Assembly: GCA_963924565.1 (NCBI GenBank)
Contig: OZ004613.1
Location: 18,104,001-18,168,000, forward strand
Length of the DNA stretch: 64,000 nucleotides
Origin: Ascidiella aspersa
Taxonomy: Eukaryota
Direction of reading: 5' to 3'
Shown in pieces: positions 1 through 42,000 of this stretch. The first letter of the stretch is position 1. Every line of letters begins with the position of its first letter. A model generated the notes under the pieces. That model worked only from the letters and a program-made list of their open reading frames with translations, was not told the DNA's origin and ran no database searches. The translations under genes were made by a program, and so were the position numbers.

Positions 1-73
1 CGACTGAAGCTGTTCTTGATCCTCAGTGTGCTACTTATTTCAACGATAGCAATTTCTGTCGTTTTATGGCTTG
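1..73 (+). CDS. M13 peptidase exon: type II signal-anchor ([24 protein letters not shown])
   Basis: About 21 hydrophobic residues preceded by basic residues; donor G|GTGAGG in phase 1, matching the next exon. Confidence 0.75.
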
Positions 74-3000
74 GTGAGGATAAATAAATAATTAATAATG
101 TTGAAATCCAATATAGCAGACTGTTCCAGTTTAAAATAATATTAAGTTTAGACAAAGCAGGAAAACGTATAGCCTACCTAGGCTTGCCATTTTTTAGAAA
201 CGTAAATCCGAGACGCATATTGAAAACTGTAAATAAACTTAATGTAGACCTAATACAAAATAATTTAATACAACTAATTAACTTAACGGTGTTGCGGTTG
301 TTTTATATTTTGTCAGGGGTATTTTTCAGGACCCTATTTTTAAGTGCGGTTTGTCTAAGTACTTTAAATCGCAATAGGATGTAATGTTCCGTATTGTGAT
401 AAAATTAATCGGGTAATTCGTATTCCCCGGACCAAATCATTCTCAAGCATAGGTTAAACAAAATGTAAGATTCCATCAAGCTGGCCTCTTAAAACTATAC
501 TACATATTAAGTTGTACTTTGCGTCATTTGCTTTAGCCGCGTGTTTTTGCCGATGATTTAAAAAGATAATTTACCATTTTACTAAAGAGTAATGTTAAGG
601 ATAGAGTAATTTCCTGGCTTGAGTGCTAAATAGTGTGTAATGTGGTAAACATTTTAATTTTTTCTAAATAAAACATTTTAATTTCTCTAATCGTTAATTG
701 TTATACAGCATATATGAGTCACATTCTTTAGCCTGTGTGGAAGCAATATTTAAATCGGACGTGTTATAAATTAACGCATTTATCTTCGTGACTGTGAAAC
801 ATCGTAATTGTTCGTCTTCGCAAACAAAATTTTACATTTTGTTGAAACAAAATTGCAAATAATGTGGGCTTATTTGAAATAAAACGACTAAATACCCACG
901 GCTAAGCACGTCAAACATCTTATATGTAACGAAACCCAGTGACAAAAATTAATAGGGAACCACTCACTAACGTAAAACCTTAAGTTGTATAGCAGCCATG
1001 GTTCGCATTGCGTGATATCCAGCAAATACGTAATCGTGGAACCATACTGCGTCCAACGTAAGTAAAATCTCGTTTGAAACTGAAAATTGGTTACGATCAA
1101 AACCGCCGCTTTACATGCGATGTTTTGCCAACTCTACCTAAATTTTGCGCGATAACATACTTCAAGAAATTCTTAAACCTAAAAGTAATTAATTTTAATG
1201 AAGGCGATATACGTAATTTGATTTTTACTTCCACGCAGGTAATTGCTATTAAAGTTTTTTATAACAACGCAACAAAGTATGTAACCAAAAAGCAATTTAG
1301 GAAGCACTCACAAACGTAAAACCTTTAAGCAGATACGTAATCCCTATACCATATTGCGTCGAACGTAAGTAAAATCTTGTTTAAACTGAATATTGGTTAC
1401 TATTAACCGCCGCATTAAATTCGAAATTTTGCGAACTATACCTAAATTTTGCGCGGTGACAGACATCAAGAAGTTTTTAAACATTTAAGTCTTAAGTTGG
1501 AAACATTAAAACTTATTTATGACTTCAATTTGATTGTAATGCTGAAAACCCGCGACATTTATCGATCCAAAATTACTAACAAACATTAAACTTTAAGTTG
1601 TTGCGTAATAATCAAGCAAATAATGCCGGCACCACTGCGTCTTACGTGAAAAAAATCCTTGAAAACAAAAATTGCTTAAGGGTGACCGGTTTGCGAAGGC
1701 GCTCGCTTATTACCTTCATCGAAAATATATCTCTCAGCACCCGCCGGATAATATCCATTTACATTTTTTTACTCACCACACATGAAAACGAAATTACCGG
1801 TAGCCCCAGCAACCTCACCCCCAGAAAAATATTTCTTAACACCCGCTGGAAAAATAATTAATTTATGTTAAAAAAATTTGCTTGACAGCCTTACCAACCG
1901 AAAATGAAAAGTAAAAAGTATTTTTTATAGTTGTAAGAAAGAATTGCTAAGCGGGCTAACTCAAGAGTTTTTATATTTTTTAATGTTTTTTATAAATCTC
2001 ATAGTGAAAAATCCGGGACAAATTGGTTAACCGGCCGGGACACCGGGACAAGGCCTTAAAACCGGGACTGTCCCGGCTAAACCGGGACGTATGGCAAGCC
2101 TATGTATACCGCCACTTTGTTTTGTAAATAATTTGTCGTATATATTATTTCATTTAAGTTTTATTTTTCCTTAAAAACAATAAATGTCCAGTTAAATTTA
2201 TCACAACTTTTTCAATGAGAATTTAGGCTTGTTTTGCCCAAATAGATGATCCAATCTAGGAATTATTGAATTTAATTAAACCCGCGGGCAACCGGACCGC
2301 CAAGCAATTTAATCCAGCTCATGACTCATTTCAATAAAACTTTTAGGCTTTAAATTACACTTGAATACCATGAATACCTATTCCTACTCTAACCAGCTAA
2401 TCAAAATAAGGATAAAGGATATTTAAAACTTATTTTAAAAGTCACACTTTGTATTGTATAAAATAATGTAGTTCAGATCCGTTTTTTGACCAGGCCCTAC
2501 ACGACACTTTCTATAGTTACGTAATACAAAAACTTAAAAAAATAATGGCAATATGAAAAAGTACAAACCACAGACCGACGCCTAAAAAGTATAGAATAGA
2601 CATATAAGGATGCCAGATTGGCTTTTTTAACAACAAATTTCAAAAATCTGGCATTTTTTCAACGTGTTTGCTGTTAGAAAAATCATTTAGGCTTGTTTTT
2701 TGTGTTATTCTTATCGAGGCTAAAACTAAAAATATTGAGACTAGCCAAAACTAATTAAAATGCATATGTTTTTTGAAACCTTTCCTGCTTAATGGTGAAA
2801 AAAGCGGCCCAAATAGACGTTAAAAGCGACATGCTTTATTTTCAAACGTTTCGGCAAATTCTCATGCCATCATCAGTGATATGAAGGTCACATCGGTTGC
2901 ACCCGTTTATACACACCATGGTCGCACCAAGGAATGATAAGAATGATAAAAAAGTATCGACTAATGTTATTGGAATCAATTTCTATTCAACGCTATAAAC

Positions 3001-6000
3001 CGGAATTAAACGTTGATTTTAAGTCGGTTCCTCTGTATTTGTTCAATACTTAATTAACTTATTGCGTATTTTTGATGTGACGTACTGTCCTACTATTGTG
3101 TCTTTGTTTCTTTGCTTGTTATTGTATTGTATGTCGCAGTTGATCTGCACCTGTTTCATCAGACGCACACGCGCAGGTGGCTTACACCTCGCTCCTCGTT
3201 TTTGCTGCGCACCCTTTTTATCTATCTTTTTGCGACGCTTGTTTCGCACTTTTTTATCATTCCTTGGTGCGACCAAAGTGTGTATAAACGGGTGCAATCG
3301 ATGTGGCCTTCATATCACTGATGATGGCATGAGAATTTGCCGAAACGTTTGAAAATAAAGCATGTCGCTTTTAACGTCTATTTGGGCCGCTTTTTTCACC
3401 ATTAAACTTATGAACAGATCCGTATATAGTGTTTCCTGCTTAAATATCAAAATAATAAATCAGTTCATTATGAGATATTGTTTAAAAACATTGTTTGCAT
3501 GAATTTATTCTTTTGCACTTCGGGGTGAGAACTCTTGAACATCAAAAAGCATGACATTTTAGCCCATTGTTGAGTTAGATTTTGCAATAAAAATGTGCAT
3601 TTTTTATTGTGAACGTGCTATGTAAGTCATATGGCCACAGCACACTAGCTGTTTTGAACCTTATGAGATCTTGATATTAATTGCGATTTTTTCTCATACC
3701 AATCAACCATACAGTATATTTAAACGAAAAGTTAATGTGTATTGGATGTAAAACTACATATAATTGTTATTGAGTTTTTTCCAGGTTTTTACGTACAGTT
3801 CGGGTTTAAATTAAAATTTTGATCTGGCAACCCATACGGACCGTTAACAAACTCTGGGCACCGGTCCACTGTGTTAGAGGGTGAAAATTTAAACATGAAG
3901 TCACAAAGTTAGGTCTTGATATAGGTAACCTTTTACATAAAAAGATGGCGACAAAGCGTTGACAATTTGCGTTTATTATAAAAATAAATTAAAATTGGAA
4001 AAAATGTGACGACTTTAGCACGATATCAACATTCTGACATTTCTTGTTAGAATGGCATTTATCAATATGATTTAAAGATCGTTTTTAATAGGTTATTTTT
4101 TGGGCTCGATCCAGGTTTACTTTGGTTCATAACTATTCGGTTTGGGACTAATATTTACTAATATATATGTGATTGTTTTTTTCCAGAAAACCCTGACATG
4201 AAATCTTCAATAATAACTAAAGCGAAGTGTATATCATATGAATGTGAAAAGTCAGGTAAGATTTTTGGTAATATCTTTATAATGGAATGGATGTTTGCTT
4301 TGACTAATTAGGTAAAAAATAGACTAGAAGTTAGGTAAAAATTAGAATTTCGAAGAGCTATTTTCCGCAGAGATTCGACAAACTATACTATTGATCATGA
4401 AAATAGAAACAAATATGTTAGATTAAAAATATAGTCATGCGCCAGGCCCAGCATGTTGCTAAGCTATATATTTATCCATTTGGAGGCTACCGAGGTTAAG
4501 TTTACCTGTTCTACTGACCAAATCCAATGCAATGCCCAACAATCAGGAGATTCAAACCAAAGTCAGCAAGTTAGGGATAATACACATTCTAAGATATGAT
4601 ATATTGCAATAAACAAATTTATACCTTAAAAAAATAAAACATAGGTAAGGGGATTTTATTGTAAAATCAGCTGTACCGGTATAAAAAATATACAATTGTT
4701 TACTTTGGGTAAACTTTTTCTCTTACTGGCATAAGGGTTTGACATTTTTTTATATCTGATAGTCTAATAAACGTCGTTAAATCATCTAAGGGACGTATTA
4801 CAATGGAAAGATAAATTGGAAGATAAACCCATGTGATGACTTCTTCGAATTTGCGTGTGGTGCAGCAATCGCGGATAAAGCAACATTCGTCGGGAAACGT
4901 ATTGATGCATATGGTGTGGTTCGATTTCGTGTAGCATCTAATCTAAGAGGTAATTTTAAAAGCCATATACTGAAACAGCCACCAAACAAAAATATTAAAA
5001 ATGCAAATCAGATTTACTAGAAGAAAAGATTCAAAATGTGGACGGAGAAGCTGTAACCAAAGCTAAACACTTGTATGAGTCATGTATGGACACAGGTAGG
5101 CTAAATATTTGCTATATTTGATTAAATCTGGTGAAACATACCAATAGGCGCGGGTAGCACAGGAAAGGGATGAAAACTTTCCTTTATAAATTGGGGGGAG
5201 GGGGAGGGGTAGATTAAAGAATAAATATTAGTTCGACTACTAAACTATTAGTGTGTTAACATCAGTAATATATATATATACATATATTTAAGTTCCTAAT
5301 TTTATTTCGGTACTAGGGATTAATAGTGACCAACTGTTGGCATGTCACAAAAAATTGCATTAAAGCTATTATTTAAACCAATGGTTTCCAAATATTTTGT
5401 GATCGTGATTTCCTTTTTAGTTTATTTACGCGACTCTTGCCCTTGAATGTTTTTATCGTGATGCCGTTGCATATTTGGGCACAAGACTTATTTTATGGCG
5501 TCTTGATTTCTGGTTAGTCACCACAAATATTATTCACATGTCTTATTCGTGATTAAACCTAAACAGAATTTATTTCAACTTTCCGACATTTAATAACAAG
5601 ATAGCTCTTGAAACGGAAACTAATACGAGAGCAAATTTAACTTTAAAACTGAACCACAGGTGATTTTAACGTTATAATGTCACAATTGTTTTAAATTTGC
5701 GGATACGCCGCGTACAAATCAAACATCGAATGGCATCTTAGCGTTTTTTACACTATGTTAAAATCAAGGGCAACTTGGCAGATGGCATAAGAAAAAGGCA
5801 AATTCGCAACCTAACGAATATCATGTTTTGTGGATTTTCTAGTCCAGAGGTTCCCAACGTGGGCGGCACCGCCCCTTGTTCGCGTTGGAGAGTATAAAAA
5901 TAGTACAAACAACACTGTAAAATATGTAACATTTAAGCTTAATGGCAACTTTAGTAATGCAAACTTGTAGTAGTTTCTGGCGTAATAATTGGCTTTCTTG

Positions 6001-9000
6001 TGTAAGGGTGTTGGTTGTTTTTGCGTTTCATCGTTTTATACACGGCAAAATGTTTGTATATATAAAGCAGGGATCGGCAACCTACGGCCCGCGGGCCGGA
6101 TCCGCCAATGTAATTTATCCGGCCCGCCACCTCTTTGATAAACTAGACACGAGTCGATTTCAAATACTTTTACATTCGGTTTGTTTACGTTTTGATGCTG
6201 TCTTTTAAAATAGATCAGCGCTTCTTTACCGTTGCGCCATGGGAGGCTGCCAATTGCGTCGCGGACAAATGGTAAACGCATTCAAAAATATTGGTCATAT
6301 ATTTTTTAACATTTTTTTATTTTCGGATTTTAAAAGAAATGCCTGTATACCAACAAAAAATTGGGCTCGGTTCGCTCGCCGAGGGCACTCCAACTTAAAA
6401 ACAGTAACAAACACTGAACTAGATTAACTATTAAGGTTATCGCGTTTCCACAAAGTAATTCTATTCCTTTTTTTATTAGTAGTATGGATGACGACGTGTG
6501 GACTCGAATTTTAAACAAAACAAACACTTTTTTTGCGCTTTGCGCCAACACTTTACTGCCTCCTTAAACGTAATGTTTTTAGGTGAACAAAAATCCGGGG
6601 CCCATCTGATTTACAGTCTCCTGATTTCACAGAGAAAATTTTATTAACACAATTGTTAATTAAAATTTTTTACGGCCCGCATAGACCTTTTTGAGTTTGG
6701 TTTTGGCCCGCGACTAGCAAAAGATTGCCGACCCCTGATTTAAAGTCAGAAAGTTGAAATTTCCTGGTAATGACATAACCTGGTTAATTCATGTTTTACA
6801 GAAAAGGAAAAATGTAAAAAAATGTTTCGTTAAATAGTACTATACTGTAGTGACGTGCGGTGAGGTTCCTAGATGGTGAGGCACAAATTTTTTCCATTCA
6901 CGTTTTTCTTTAATAACCACAACACAAACACGGTATAGTAGGCCTACTAATAAAAAAATTTGAACTTTTTTTGTTTAGCTTTTACCATTGTATAAACTGC
7001 CTATCGAACACAAATAAATATGCTAGCAAACCGTTTCGAGAAGCAACTGACTGAGTGTTAACGCAATACATAAAAAACATTCAAAGAGCAAAAACAAAAT
7101 GACTTAAAAGCAGGTAGTCGAACCAGAACCGAACCGAAACTTTATGAACCGGTTTTGGGTCAATTTTATCCGAACCGTAACCGAACCCGAAACGGTTTTT
7201 ATAAGATTTTAAGGAGCCGAACCGGAACTGAACCGAATAATTTGAAAGTACCTGAACCTTAACCGAACCTGTAAATAAAAGCGGTTCGCTCCTGCATGAC
7301 GTCACAAGTTCTATTTTACAGAGTCAAGTTACGCCATATTCGAAATTTTATGAAAATATGTGAATATTGAATGAAAAAATCGTTGATTTTTTAGTTTTTA
7401 GATATTTCAATAATGAGCTGTTTTTTTAATACATCACTTAACTTAGATTAAATGACTTACAATTCAAACATTATTCTCTACATTTATCAACCCACATTTT
7501 GAGATTTAACGCAAACTATATTGTATCTGAACCGGAACTTTATGAACCGGTTTTGAAATAGCGATGGTCGAACCGGAGCTGAACCGGAACTTTTAAATTT
7601 CTCGGAACCGAAACCGGAACTGAACCGGATTCCGAAAAAATTCTTGAACCTGAACCGAACCTGAACCGGAAAAGTCAAACGGTTCGACTCCCTGCTTAAA
7701 AGTAGTAAAACTACATTAATATAGCAAACGTAATAATGACAACATCGTTTAGACGTAACAGTCCATGACAATTGAAGGTTAGGCATGTCTGTGTTGTGGT
7801 AGGCTACTGCTCATAAAAGCTACAAAACAAATTATTATTAAGAGTGCAACATTTATAAATTATTGGAGGGCCTATGGCCCCCCTGGCTACGCCCATGACA
7901 TCCACACAGTCACTATTTTTTTATCAATCTCTTTGAAAGTTGCGGGTTATTTCTTTTGTCCAGTCGTCTGATGCAAAACTTTTTAATTTGCAACAGGTCT
8001 GCCTTGATATGTGACTCTAACTTTAGAGCTTTACCCTATAAGATGTAAATGTACACGCACTATGCGGGAATTTAAGAACTCAAGCTGGACAAAGAAAGGT
8101 TTCATAGTTTGGACGTCACAATTGAGGCATGCCTCAAATCATAGCTAAATTGGTCATCATGTTTTCCGAGAGAATTCGCAAAAGAAAAAGGCACGCATAA
8201 TGCAGTGCGACATAATTTTTTGTGGCCCGCGAGCACTGTTAAAAAATTGGAATGCGTACCTTTAAGGCAGGGGTGGGCAACCTTTTTAACACAAGGGCCA
8301 GTTAAAAAATGTTCATATTTTCAGCTTTTACTAGAAAAACTAATGAGCTAATAGGATGCAACTACGGCAGTTTTGTCAGTGCTGTCTACTTGTGGATTCG
8401 GAACTAACTTTTCCTACAATTTAAATGAAGCCTTTCTCGTACGGATTGGCTCAGTACAATTTCGGCTCAGTACAAACAGCCTTAATTCGAAACCAGCTGT
8501 TAGACATAACATCTCAGTTAATATGCGTGGCAAAAGTCTGTTACACCTTGACCGTACCAGACAAGTGTAATTGTTGCAAAACAATTCTTTATCATAACAA
8601 CGTGACAAAAGTAAAACTTTTGAATGAAGATTGTTTTGTAATAGATGTTCGAGTTTAACTGTATTAGTGTAGCGGTGCAGCCTATGGGTTACATTGCACT
8701 TCAAACAGGAAACTGATAGAGCAAAAGTCCCAAGGTGAAGGGCCGCACAAAAAATGGAAAAGGGCCGCATGCGGCCCGCGGGACACACGTTGCCCACCCC
8801 TGCTTTAAGGGTTTAATCAAAGGAATATAAGTGACCAACGAACAGCAAGCATGTTCGAATTGTTTGGTTATGATTACATGTTTCCGGTTGCACCATTAAA
8901 TACACCAGTTAACTATCGCTCATTAAGTTCGGATTCAGGGGGTGTTAAGAACGCCTAATTTTTGGTATGTGGTAGACCGCTTTAAAAGTCGCAGTACGTC

Positions 9001-39000: not shown

Positions 39001-42000
39001 TACGTCCCTGGTCAAACCTCGTTAGTTTATTATAGCAAAAGGAAATAAGCTAAAAACTCACATAAGAAATTATTCCATACAGAACAAAGCAAAATTATAT
39101 GATTTGGCGAATAGTGAAAAACCGCTTGCCGAATTTGTCAAAAAGATACTTCGACCGACTTCGAAAGTTTAAGGTAAGAAAAATATGGCCCAGATAGTTT
39201 TTACATGATAAATACAAACAATAGCCTAAACTAAAAAAATATATTTTATGCAGGCTGCCACAAACAGAATTACGTGGGATGAAAGGTGGGAATACTGTGT
39301 TGATTTTGTAGACAAGGTTATGCCAGGTCCAACAGGAAATTTATTCACAAAAAAATATTTTGCTAAAAACAAGAAAAAATCGGTAAGCATTAGGCCTACG
39401 TTTAAGGGACTTGTTTTTTTTTGCAATCAGGGGCGGATCGAGAATTTTTTTGGAGCACGCTTTTTTATAGGTGACGCCACAAAGTCAAAACGTGATGTCA
39501 TACAACAAATAACAGAAATCTGCTGTTGTTGGTCGAACTCGTGCCAAATCGACGTCTGAAATCTATAGTCTAATTCCAATACAAAGAGATTGTGGCATAG
39601 CACAAAAAATGCCGTTACTTTGATTAAATTGATAAATTTTGTTACGCATTTAGGACATAAAATAGTTTGCTCGATATGACAATTTATAAATAAGATTTTG
39701 GAGAGCAAATTTTATCGGTCATTGCAACGACTGTTGTTCAAAGTTGTTGCTTACGGACGTTATGGATTCTTAATTTTTTTAAATGGAAAAACATCGTGCT
39801 AAGTGAGAAAAGTGCACATTGGTAAGATTTTTTTATAATTTGGTTAAACCATACCACAAAGCCAAATGTGGCATGTGCGACCTGCAACAATATCTTGGTA
39901 TTTATATAGTTAGCAGATATAAACATGGAGCCAACGTCTCGTCCTTCAGTCCCTTTATCCGCCCCTGTTTGTATGATTAAATAATTGCTTGTAAATAGTA
40001 AAGCATGACGTTACAGGTTCGCGATATTTTTGATCGAATAAAGACTGCATTTACATGGAACCTTGTCAACAAAGTCCATTGGATTGACAATTCAAGCAAG
40101 CATATTGCAATTGAAATAATAAGAGATATTGCTCCTAATATCGGATATGCGGAATTTTATCAAAACAAGACATATTTGGATAAAGAATTGAAACAAGTAA
40201 ATAGTTCTTCAAATTAATTTGTGGTCAATAATGGGCTACGTGTTCAGAAAATGTGGGATAAAATTCCTTGTAAAAATAAAGCTCTGGTCAAGTTCTTTGA
40301 ATAATAATTATTCAAAAGCTTTATATGGGCTTACATATCATCCATTTTTGTCATATTAAACACAAACAACGATTTATTTAGGCAAAGAAAACATAGATGT
40401 TAGCGCCACTGTCGTAAATACAAAATGAAGTTAAAGTCCACGTTGAAATATCCTAAAATGACATAAGATTACATGCATGATAAAAGTCGAATAACAGCTC
40501 CTGTTTCCGCATATAACAGCTAATTTATTTAGCGCTACTTCCTACCGGTTGACGTAGTTTAGGCATATCGAACAGTACAAAGCTTTGTTTTGCGGTTTGA
40601 TTTAAAGTTAGATCCTTTGGGCAAAGCATCCGTTTAATCATAGACTGTAACGCGGCCTGTTTTGGAAGTGGCTAGGTTCCTAGCTGCGTCACACGCTGCT
40701 TCTGCTTTCAAGGTTTAATACCGATCGTGATCGAAGTTTCCACGGAAAACGTAAAACCTCAAACGAATTACTTTATTTTCAGTGAAGTAATCACCAACAG
40801 TTTCAAAACCGTGACGTATAGCCCACAGTGGCAGCGCAACAAGCTGTGAAAACATAATTATCATTAGCACAACGCAACACTATGACGTCACAATGTACAA
40901 TTCAACTCCCCAAAAACGTGGAAGGAAAATAACGAAACAGTACCAAGAGTTTGGTCAACAAAACTTCAAAGTTCAAACTGGAAATAAATCACAAATTCAG
41001 TTTAACTAAGTCACTTATGTAGCAACCAAGAATTAGTAAATATGCAAAGTATCTTACCGAGTTATCGACAGTTTCAGGCATAACAGTTCACTGCATTTAC
41101 AGCCACAATTTACATATTGTACATCTGCAGTATACAAATACAGATACTTTAATAAACTTATCTTGATGGTTTACTTTTACTTAAACACCTTTAAATATAC
41201 ATTTACCAGTCAACAACAAGCAAAATAACTTTTAACGAATTCAACTGAAACAGCCTACAAAAATGACGAAACAAAATGATATAGTATCACGATGCGCAAC
41301 CATGCGTCACATGTAATATTATAACAATAGGGGAGCGTGGAGAAATTATTACACTCCCCCCAAAATTGACAAGTCGCACGGTTCACTTTCAATTTTCAAT
41401 ACACAAATTTTGACTCGCTCGCCAAATGCACCGGCCTTCGCGAACAAGTTTAATTTTGCTCGTTTGCCTGCGGTGAAGGTGCCACTGGGTCACCAGGCGC
41501 CCCTGGGCCAGAGGGAACGACGAGGGACAATTTATGAATTGGCCTTCGTAATTCGTTCCCCTTTGATCGAACTAGGACGTTTCGTACAACTCCATGCTCA
41601 TCAGGATGGACGGCGACGACTCTTTAAAGCGACCACGACGACCTCGGAGTTGTGTTGTCGACCAAGAGGACGATATCGTCAACTCTTATGTTCCTCTTCT
41701 CATGATGCCATTTCTGACGGGCAATGATGGTACGCAAATATTCGCGCGCCCAACGCTTCCAGAACTGATCTGAAAAGTATTGGACGTGTCGCCAACCTCG
41801 ACGTGCATAGCAGTCGCGGTCGTTTGTGGCGGTGGGTGGTAAGCCAGCATCAGAGCTCACTCGCAGCAAATGATTCGGAGTTAGCGGTGTCTCCTCATCA
41901 ACATCCAGCGTGACCAGCGTCAATGGACGAGAATTTAAAATCGAATCCACTTCCAAAAACAACGTCTGAAGTTGATCATCGGTCAGGGTCCGTTCGTTAG

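Follow-up and report, generated by a model that had tools for sequence, protein, structure and literature searches.

A single inverted Penelope-like insert carrying two probably inert hammerhead motifs in an intron of Ascidiella aspersa

The insert and its host intron

The window analysed here, a 64,000-nucleotide stretch of Ascidiella aspersa contig OZ004613.1, carries an insert within a predicted intron; the host gene probably encodes a peptidase of the M13 (neprilysin) type (Table 1). As predicted from the sequence, removal of this intron would link a membrane-anchor-like exon in frame with the next exon, and the downstream exon gave a weak Peptidase_M13_N match below the cut-off (E 0.0043). 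Within one raw RNA run (about 6 in 100 sampled, 133 reads), depth on the host exons was near zero, reads mapping to the arm bore alleles of other copies, and reads from other family copies were present on both strands; no empty-site joint was among the 15 joints listed for this run, which has 84 further joints. Contigs from run X1 span the left junction of the insert, and this run may be the source of the assembly itself.

The original prediction of an insert of about 640 bp between direct repeats was borne out: a 12-bp target-site duplication, TTTCCTGCTTAA, stands on both sides and encloses 639 bp. The two inverted arms, given as about 160 bp, are 155 nt each (2789-2943 and 3251-3405) and 97% complementary, and the left arm extends to 2955 once one 9-nt tandem-unit indel is allowed. 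The identification as a 5'-truncated Penelope-like element (PLE) with an inverted pseudo-LTR (pLTR) and minimal type I hammerheads also stands. Between the arms, the prediction placed only the last 31 codons of a PLE ORF; the C-terminal end of such an ORF does lie there and corresponds to that of the parent ORF at locus L031, but it has 32 codons and shares the interval with about 195 nt of 3' UTR. This UTR, the tail on one arm only and the TATAAA in both arms were absent from the prediction.

Table 1. Coordinates of features in the window
Feature	Positions	Strand	Remarks
Host intron, probable M13 (neprilysin-type) peptidase gene	74..4186	+	GT at 74, AG at 4186
Left target-site duplication, 12 bp	2781..2792	+	Last 4 nt also agree with the element end (microhomology)
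Inverted arm, element 3' end without tail	2793..2955	-	Reference positions R334-500
Minimal type I hammerhead, antisense to host gene	2842..2879	-	Identical to + copy
TATAAA of inverted arm	2906..2911	-	Putative promoter, would be directed at upstream host exon
Last 32 codons and stop of RT/GIY-YIG ORF	2955..3053	+	Codons 2955-3050, stop 3051-3053; head-to-head junction at 2955, 1-nt overlap
3' UTR / pLTR of direct arm	3054..3405	+
TATAAA of direct arm	3283..3288	+	The two commonest end positions of family copies lie 29 and 31 nt downstream
Putative transcription starts A3312, A3314	3312..3314	+	From 5'-end pile-up and extra G in other copies
Minimal type I hammerhead	3315..3352	+	Stem I 3 bp, CUGAUGA, bulged U, stem II GGCA/UGCC, GAAA
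AATAAA, host-gene sense	3354..3359	+	Possible polyadenylation signal
26-nt tail, direct arm only	3406..3431	+	Contains ATG 3410 (MNRSVYSV), probable ORF start; one homologue begins MNRF
Right target-site duplication	3432..3443	+

The element family and the origin of inverted inserts

The family has hundreds of copies in the genome (216 exact 26-mer matches; 907 first-look candidates). Fragments of the parent ORF at L031 gave an RVT_1 match below the cut-off (E 6e-6), and Pfam returned no GIY-YIG match on the parent ORF itself. Its C-terminus aligns with three homologues (P0001-P0003) that carry RVT_1 and GIY-YIG (one of the three above the cut-off), and of the endonuclease CCHH motif the alignment shows both Cys residues, the EH-motif His and the region of the downstream His. 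The parent thus fits an endonuclease-positive (EN+) PLE, with the RT followed by a C-terminal GIY-YIG domain. The search for an intact parent of full length was negative; L031 itself is broken and rearranged, and the N-terminal part has two candidate places. Translation from the ATG in the tail begins MNR, similar to the beginning of homologue P0003. Inspection of the RT-EN linker for a CxxC motif, following the zinc-finger-like motif criterion of PMC8557442, identified none, and a PDB search gave no match.

Head-to-head inversion is the norm in this family, occurring at 71 of 111 distinct loci and in 58 of 79 pattern-selected inserts. Exactly one tail was present in 66 of 70 inverted inserts (50% expected, p=8e-16), and 44 of the 70 have direct repeats of 12-16 nt with up to one mismatch. 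The tailless arm reaches further 5' in 41 of the 66 one-tailed inserts, so that each arm holds sequence that the other lacks; the tailed arm is longer in 23, the window copy among them. Within an insert, the two arms match each other at 50 of 52 loop-II subfamily sites, compared with 64% after shuffling, and the arms in the window share one haplotype that is absent from all other sampled arms.

Arm 5' ends across the family cluster 29 and 31 nt past the TATA box and not at the ribozyme cut site. Thirty-three arm ends fall at R407-410, whereas only 3 of 137 fall exactly at the cut site and 10 within 2 nt of it; clustering of inversion breakpoints at the cut site was rejected on these counts. 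The peak lies on the far (5') edge of the ribozyme structure, which led us to reject RT stalling at the ribozyme as its cause. The clustered ends usually follow a non-templated G with a palindromic extension. A SNP subfamily with G at the end sites was also rejected, given that 0 of 35 G cases continue into upstream element sequence; a genome-wide control at R424 gave 7 matches, 3 of them with G, which is too few to inform.

We conclude that an abundant Penelope-like retroelement with an endonuclease very probably gave rise to the insert as a single 5'-truncated, non-coding copy, consisting of two head-to-head 3' ends that were likely double-primed on uncleaved RNA, with hammerheads that are likely inert passengers. 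By this route, the GIY-YIG endonuclease of the element would cut the target strands about 12 nt apart, as the observed duplication and the enzyme step in PMC11167929 suggest. One target end would then prime at the tail's far end, and its counterpart 26 nt upstream, consistent with the observed one-tail asymmetry. The two cDNAs would halt at variable points and be joined 5' to 5'; the 70 inverted inserts have 68 different junction pairs. An anole PLE protein is known to nick and extend both strands from two internal sites bounding the tail, and it works on unprocessed RNA (PMC11167929). For the window copy, both arms would derive from a read-through transcript, namely from its 3' pLTR, because both continue beyond the putative start site, and this origin would explain why both keep whole hammerheads.

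The 5'-end pile-up, the extra G and the one-tail pattern together suggest uncleaved, capped templates that were primed twice. More tentatively, and at somewhat below even chance, the copies may record a whole insertion cycle: the template would be a capped Pol II transcript that starts 29-31 nt after the TATA box and bears an uncut hammerhead at its 5' terminus; one particle would prime both strands at two initiation sites; and the RT would copy the cap as an extra G, completing a palindrome (GATC or GATATC) from which the head-to-head joint would be seeded. The ribozyme would then not set the template's 5' end.

Alternatively, one cDNA or an antisense template could have folded back and primed itself (self-priming) to give the inverted arm, with no second priming on RNA, an origin proposed for rotifer Penelopes (PMC3846280) that we consider rather unlikely here. 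The alleles shared by the arms of an insert fit this origin, as do the short perfect palindromes that extend from start-site ends in 25 of 54 junctions (2 of 31 controls). So does the window copy, in which the tailed arm is the longer and contains all of the other arm except one 9-nt tandem unit, a layout compatible with fold-back copying of one cDNA at this locus. However, in the 41 inserts in which the tailless arm goes further 5' while the other arm is tailed, a plain copy would need a later deletion. Such deletion could also account for unequal arms, and gene conversion for the likeness of arms.

Hammerhead motifs and the predicted duplex

As originally predicted, each arm carries a minimal type I hammerhead with an intact core, and the two stretches are identical (CUGAUGA-U-GGCA/UGCC-GAAACGUU). 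The Infernal/Rfam check proposed with that prediction returned no hammerhead match in 1-8000 at E<=5, so the call rests on direct inspection against the minimal descriptor of PMC4209133. The motif agrees with this descriptor in core C3-A9, G12-A15.1 and U16.1-H17, in stems I and II and in the palindromic 15.2-16.2; for the + motif, a palindromic CG replaces stem III, and the predicted cut is after U3349 (GUU). Core and both stems are kept in 61 of 100 sampled arms with the whole motif, and stems I and II are nearly invariant across this young family. One loop-II pair covaries between subfamilies (U-A 60, G-U 33, unpaired 12, gapped 1), which may represent a single event. Catalytic core positions mutate at 2.06% versus 2.04% for downstream sequence, and fold z-scores of the motif alone were not significant (-1.7, -0.7, +0.2). 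A further hammerhead-like string at 41604 (-) was rejected; it lacks stem I and sits in an unrelated open frame.

An A15.1-U16.1 pair would enclose a 2-nt CG loop, so stem III could form only in a dimer; the active-form dimer can be drawn at -11.9 kcal/mol, and the predicted minimum is -20.5 kcal/mol. Monomeric minimal hammerheads of this type showed no cleavage in vitro (PMC4209133), and BLAST identified no second same-strand copy of the motif in the window or 10 kb upstream. Cutting of the host pre-mRNA by the + motif is therefore not supported for a motif with neither a monomeric stem III nor such a partner, and the lone motif is predicted not to cut even without the duplex. Since the anole hammerhead cleaves with protein help (PMC11167929), monomers could become active in vivo, or other transcribed copies could supply an activating partner in trans. 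The hammerheads of the insert are likely inert passengers.

The long duplex that was proposed to sequester the + motif is supported by the predicted fold. The whole insert folds at -338.8 kcal/mol, the arms would form a duplex of about 155 bp in the host pre-mRNA, and at equilibrium all bases of the + motif are paired to the left arm with probability 1.0. The antisense copy lies 442 nt upstream, in agreement with the proposed 450 nt or so; masking is not, however, a special property, as antisense-first order is a consequence of head-to-head geometry, whichever strand is transcribed. The motif lacks a monomeric stem III, such monomers did not cleave in vitro and no same-strand partner was found in the window; therefore, there is probably little for the duplex to neutralise. 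Exactly one complete motif remains in 39 of 58 inverted inserts, and two remain in just 6, against 11.2 expected (P(<=6)=0.05), so that pairs are not enriched. It is thus very unlikely that the insertion is self-neutralising, with a sense hammerhead that cuts the pre-mRNA and an insert tolerated since the earlier-made antisense arm masks it; the intact cores, the predicted pairing and the upstream antisense copy fit that account, but the absent stem III and cis partner, the motif counts and the forced order argue against it. The predicted duplex is a plausible source of dsRNA, siRNA or editing.

That the 640-bp structure is itself an amplifying non-autonomous mini-element, retrozyme- or MITE-like, is extremely improbable: there are hundreds of short related copies, but the window junction occurs once in the genome (up to 2 mismatches), so the structure was not amplified as a unit, nearly every insert has its own junction, and the tandem units of retrozymes are lacking.

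The opposed hammerhead pair is thus likely a by-product of insertion, in a layout already described for PLEs, and not a self-neutralising device. The window insert is ordinary mobile DNA that at most may form a long intronic hairpin or act as a cryptic promoter or poly(A) signal, and more weight attaches to the family statistics. The building of inverted PLE ends and the role of PLE hammerheads are both described as unsettled in the literature (PMC8557442, PMC11167929). The hundreds of tiny inserts in this family, together with its sharp putative start site and one-tail asymmetry, yield concrete predictions for 5' RACE or CAGE and for the existing in vitro system.

Comparison with known systems

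Pen2a_Av of Adineta vaga (PMC3846280), the scheme in PMC8557442 and Penelope of D. virilis (PMC2377424) are EN-positive and share with the present family an inverted 5'-truncated pLTR, a one-sided tail, a parent with RT and C-terminal GIY-YIG, 5' truncation, a target-site duplication of about 9-13 bp and a pLTR that holds the ORF start. A TATA box and initiator were also noted in the rotifer pLTR (PMC3846280). The tails of those elements are 30-40 nt, whereas the tail of this unnamed family is 26 nt and the window copy keeps just 32 codons. In the D. virilis element, the promoter is internal and TATA-less and an intron is present (PMC2377424); here, TATA lies upstream of the putative start, and no intron is evident.

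The motifs have the conserved core described by Cervera and De la Pena (2014, PMC4209133) for min-HHR, the minimal type I hammerheads found in metazoan PLEs, together with the bulged base between 9 and 10.1, G10.1-C11.1, the palindromic 15.2-16.2 and the lack of a stem III loop. Dual motifs on opposite strands, 100-700 bp apart, were reported in the same study. Here the stems measure 3 bp (stem I) and 4 bp (stem II, possibly 6 with a U.U mismatch), with a GUU triplet, whereas schistosome motifs have stems of 4-5 and 7-8 bp.

For the PAc Poseidon element of the green anole (PMC11167929), two internal RT starts bound the tail, both strands are extended and the RNA is uncleaved, which matches the family statistics reported here. 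The PAc hammerhead overlaps the ORF start, whereas the present motif precedes the probable ATG by 58-95 nt and sits at the 5' extremity of the putative transcript. Metazoan non-LTR retrozymes (bioRxiv 10.64898/2026.07.22.740005) are likewise short, non-coding and PLE-related, with a type I hammerhead; however, they are head-to-tail tandem units, whereas the window insert joins two copies head-to-head, contains part of an ORF and is unique.

Structure of the insert and its family

The layout given in the original prediction was borne out: the insert comprises 639 bp between two copies of a 12-bp direct repeat. Between its arms (2789-2943 and 3251-3405), complementarity is 97% across 155 nt; the left arm extends to 2955 once a 9-nt tandem-unit indel is allowed, and the hammerhead stretch is the same in both arms. 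The final 32 ORF codons and ~195 nt of 3' UTR occupy the centre, and a 26-nt extension is found in the right arm only. The host intron has GT...AG ends, and its flanking exons are predicted from sequence to join in frame; a later host exon weakly matches Peptidase_M13_N. Both arms retain a putative promoter (TATAAA) directed outwards; the left copy would fire antisense, toward the upstream host exon, and the right copy would fire sense into the intron, with AATAAA downstream at 3354.

A genome search with the insert returned 907 first-look candidates, of which 40 were scored, and identified one long copy, L031, but no intact full-length copy of the family. L031 contains broken frames with reverse transcriptase (RT) motifs (RVT_1, E 6e-6), matches the window remnant at 31 of 32 C-terminal residues, and aligns to three database proteins with RT and GIY-YIG domains; its middle consists of unrelated, AT-rich sequence of ~1 kb that contains AAGTC repeats. 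The insert belongs to the endonuclease-bearing Penelope-like elements.

Features of the window and of related loci (G000, genome; C1 and C9, its contigs; L-numbers, sampled family loci)
Feature	Location	Strand	Description
Hammerhead, left arm	2842-2879	-	
Hammerhead, right arm	3315-3352	+	
TATAAA, left arm	2906-2911	-	
TATAAA, right arm	3283-3288	+	
High-copy repeats	175-2260		Identified by read depth; 16-bp inverted pair at 175-190 and 2091-2106
Direct duplication	956-1490		Diverged; spacing ~305 nt
MITE-like element	7102-7703		~600 bp, 23-bp terminal inverted repeats, internal GAACCG repeats
Open frame	41300-41900	-	Contains chance hammerhead-like string at 41604; presumably resembles C-terminus of BEL/Pao-type LTR retrotransposon integrase region
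L031 rearranged copy	G000:C9:15553000-15562999, 2350-7520		5.2 kb, inverted arms 1.2 kb, RT/EN frames broken
L004 match	L004 2881-2941		75% identity to hammerhead region; probably belongs to a second Penelope family that has diverged
Same-strand family copies	G000:C1:37575538-37726127		~20-kb intervals, suggesting a tandem segmental array with one insertion

The starting loci (n = 127) comprised the 30 best and 10 further genome-search matches, seven 10-kb context regions, and pattern-match loci, which were the first 100 listed of 216 exact genome matches to an arm-derived 26-mer (contigs C1 to part of C4). After removal of the context regions (7) and of loci repeating an insertion or segmental duplicate (9), 111 loci remained; L066, identical to L065, was excluded from later counts, and in L121 no arm qualified. 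The pattern-selected subset (n = 79, L066 excluded) has no 5'-length bias but required an exact R446-471 match in one arm (R, coordinates on L031:6995-7520; at the motif, window position = R + 2905). Arm ends are BLAST ends and may be off by a few bases.

Predicted cleavage, masking and the two-hammerhead layout

The insert motif matches the minimal hammerhead descriptor, and cleavage is predicted to fall after U3349. Only CG separates A15.1 from U16.1, and stem III therefore requires a second molecule; no same-strand hammerhead partner was found within the window or the 10 kb that precede it. In PMC4209133, a schistosome monomer of the same minimal type did not cleave and dimers cleaved little, and a review (PMC6765202) agrees on both. 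An anole motif cut only in the presence of the element's own protein (PMC11167929). The sense motif may likewise be activated by protein, or by a partner acting in trans, and this would speak against its being idle.

The original prediction held that the antisense arm would sequester the sense ribozyme. A very stable arm-arm duplex is predicted, and masking would therefore occur; however, the masked motif is probably idle, lacking a monomeric stem III and a same-strand partner, and a self-neutralising insertion is very improbable. Nor is masking a special property of this insert: two complete motifs occur in 6 of 58 pattern-selected inverted inserts, versus 11.2 expected for independent arms (exactly one in 39 of 58), so masking is not enriched, and the antisense arm comes first in every head-to-head insert, on either strand. 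The mutation rate across sampled arms was 2.06% at 11 core positions versus 2.04% at downstream positions, which indicates that inserted copies decay neutrally. Within loop II of the family (R425-432), subfamilies carry either U-A or G-U at R426/R431; this difference hints that stem II may extend beyond the U.U mismatch.

Head-to-head inversion was found at 71 of 111 loci (58 of 79 pattern-selected), and 11 sampled inserts, including that of the window, have two complete motifs. The proposal of an amplifying unit did not hold, as the window's junction was found once in the genome; 68 different junction pairs occur among 70 inverted inserts. Dual minimal hammerheads on opposite strands, 100-700 bp apart, were already known (Cervera and De la Pena, PMC4209133). 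The insert is a real, correctly described but ordinary Penelope stump, and its structure is not special within the family.

Arm ends and the origin of the arms

Of 137 arms with a scored 5' end, 65 extend as far as R407-410 and 33 of these go no further, a rate of 0.127 per nt versus 0.011 and 0.013 on either side; three of the 137 end exactly at the ribozyme cut site. Genome-wide, a non-template base precedes R409 in 71 arms and R407 in 70 (a count that includes variants, 6 of 30 inspected being read-through variants), and 139 arms read through. R407 and R409 (window 3312-3314 equivalent) are each an A following a pyrimidine; counted from the first T in TATAAA, they lie at distances of 29 and 31 nt, for which the TATA-to-start spacing rule is the yardstick.

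The preceding base is G in 37/71 (26% expected, p = 2e-6) and 42/70 (21% expected, p = 3e-12) of these R409 and R407 arms, respectively; in the pattern-selected set, G precedes 14/25 putative start-site ends versus 16/75 other ends (p = 0.002). A cap-derived extra G is known for full-length L1 insertions (PMC11702581). However, the G is usually prolonged as a short perfect palindrome, with at least 2 nt continuing from it at 25 of 54 junctions versus 2 of 31 controls; it can therefore also be explained without a cap, by snap-back of the repair type or by annealing between two ends, and the data fit either origin equally. In 8 of 35 inspected cases, the opposing arm could itself end with this G. 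PMC3846280 already notes a TATA box with initiator in a pseudo-LTR (pLTR) and junction palindromes; we found no report of an extra G at Penelope 5' ends in the literature searched, which was mostly open-access main text.

Exactly one tail is present in 66 of 70 inverted inserts (50% expected; p = 8e-16), and the further-5' arm in these 66 is tailless in 41, tailed in 23 and tied in 2. The two arms of an insert agree at loop-II subfamily sites in 50/52 comparisons (64% when shuffled) and across all 13 polymorphic sites, several of CpG type, at 93.5% versus 87.4%; of 64 minor-allele sites, just 25 are shared by the two. The haplotype common to the window's two arms is absent from other sampled arms. 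Across the family, the putative transcription start, the extra G and the single tail in each insert may together form a record of insertion; this reading is tentative, but it is the part worth following.

Because both window arms run past the putative start site, their probable source is the 3' pLTR of a transcript that read through. The tail, allele and arm-length pattern of the family fits two rounds of priming on RNA of a single origin; for the window's copy, the inverted arm may instead have arisen by fold-back. Inverted copies with a one-sided tail have been described (PMC3846280, PMC8557442 and PMC2377424), and two such priming events would match how the anole element works, with two starts and both strands used (PMC11167929).
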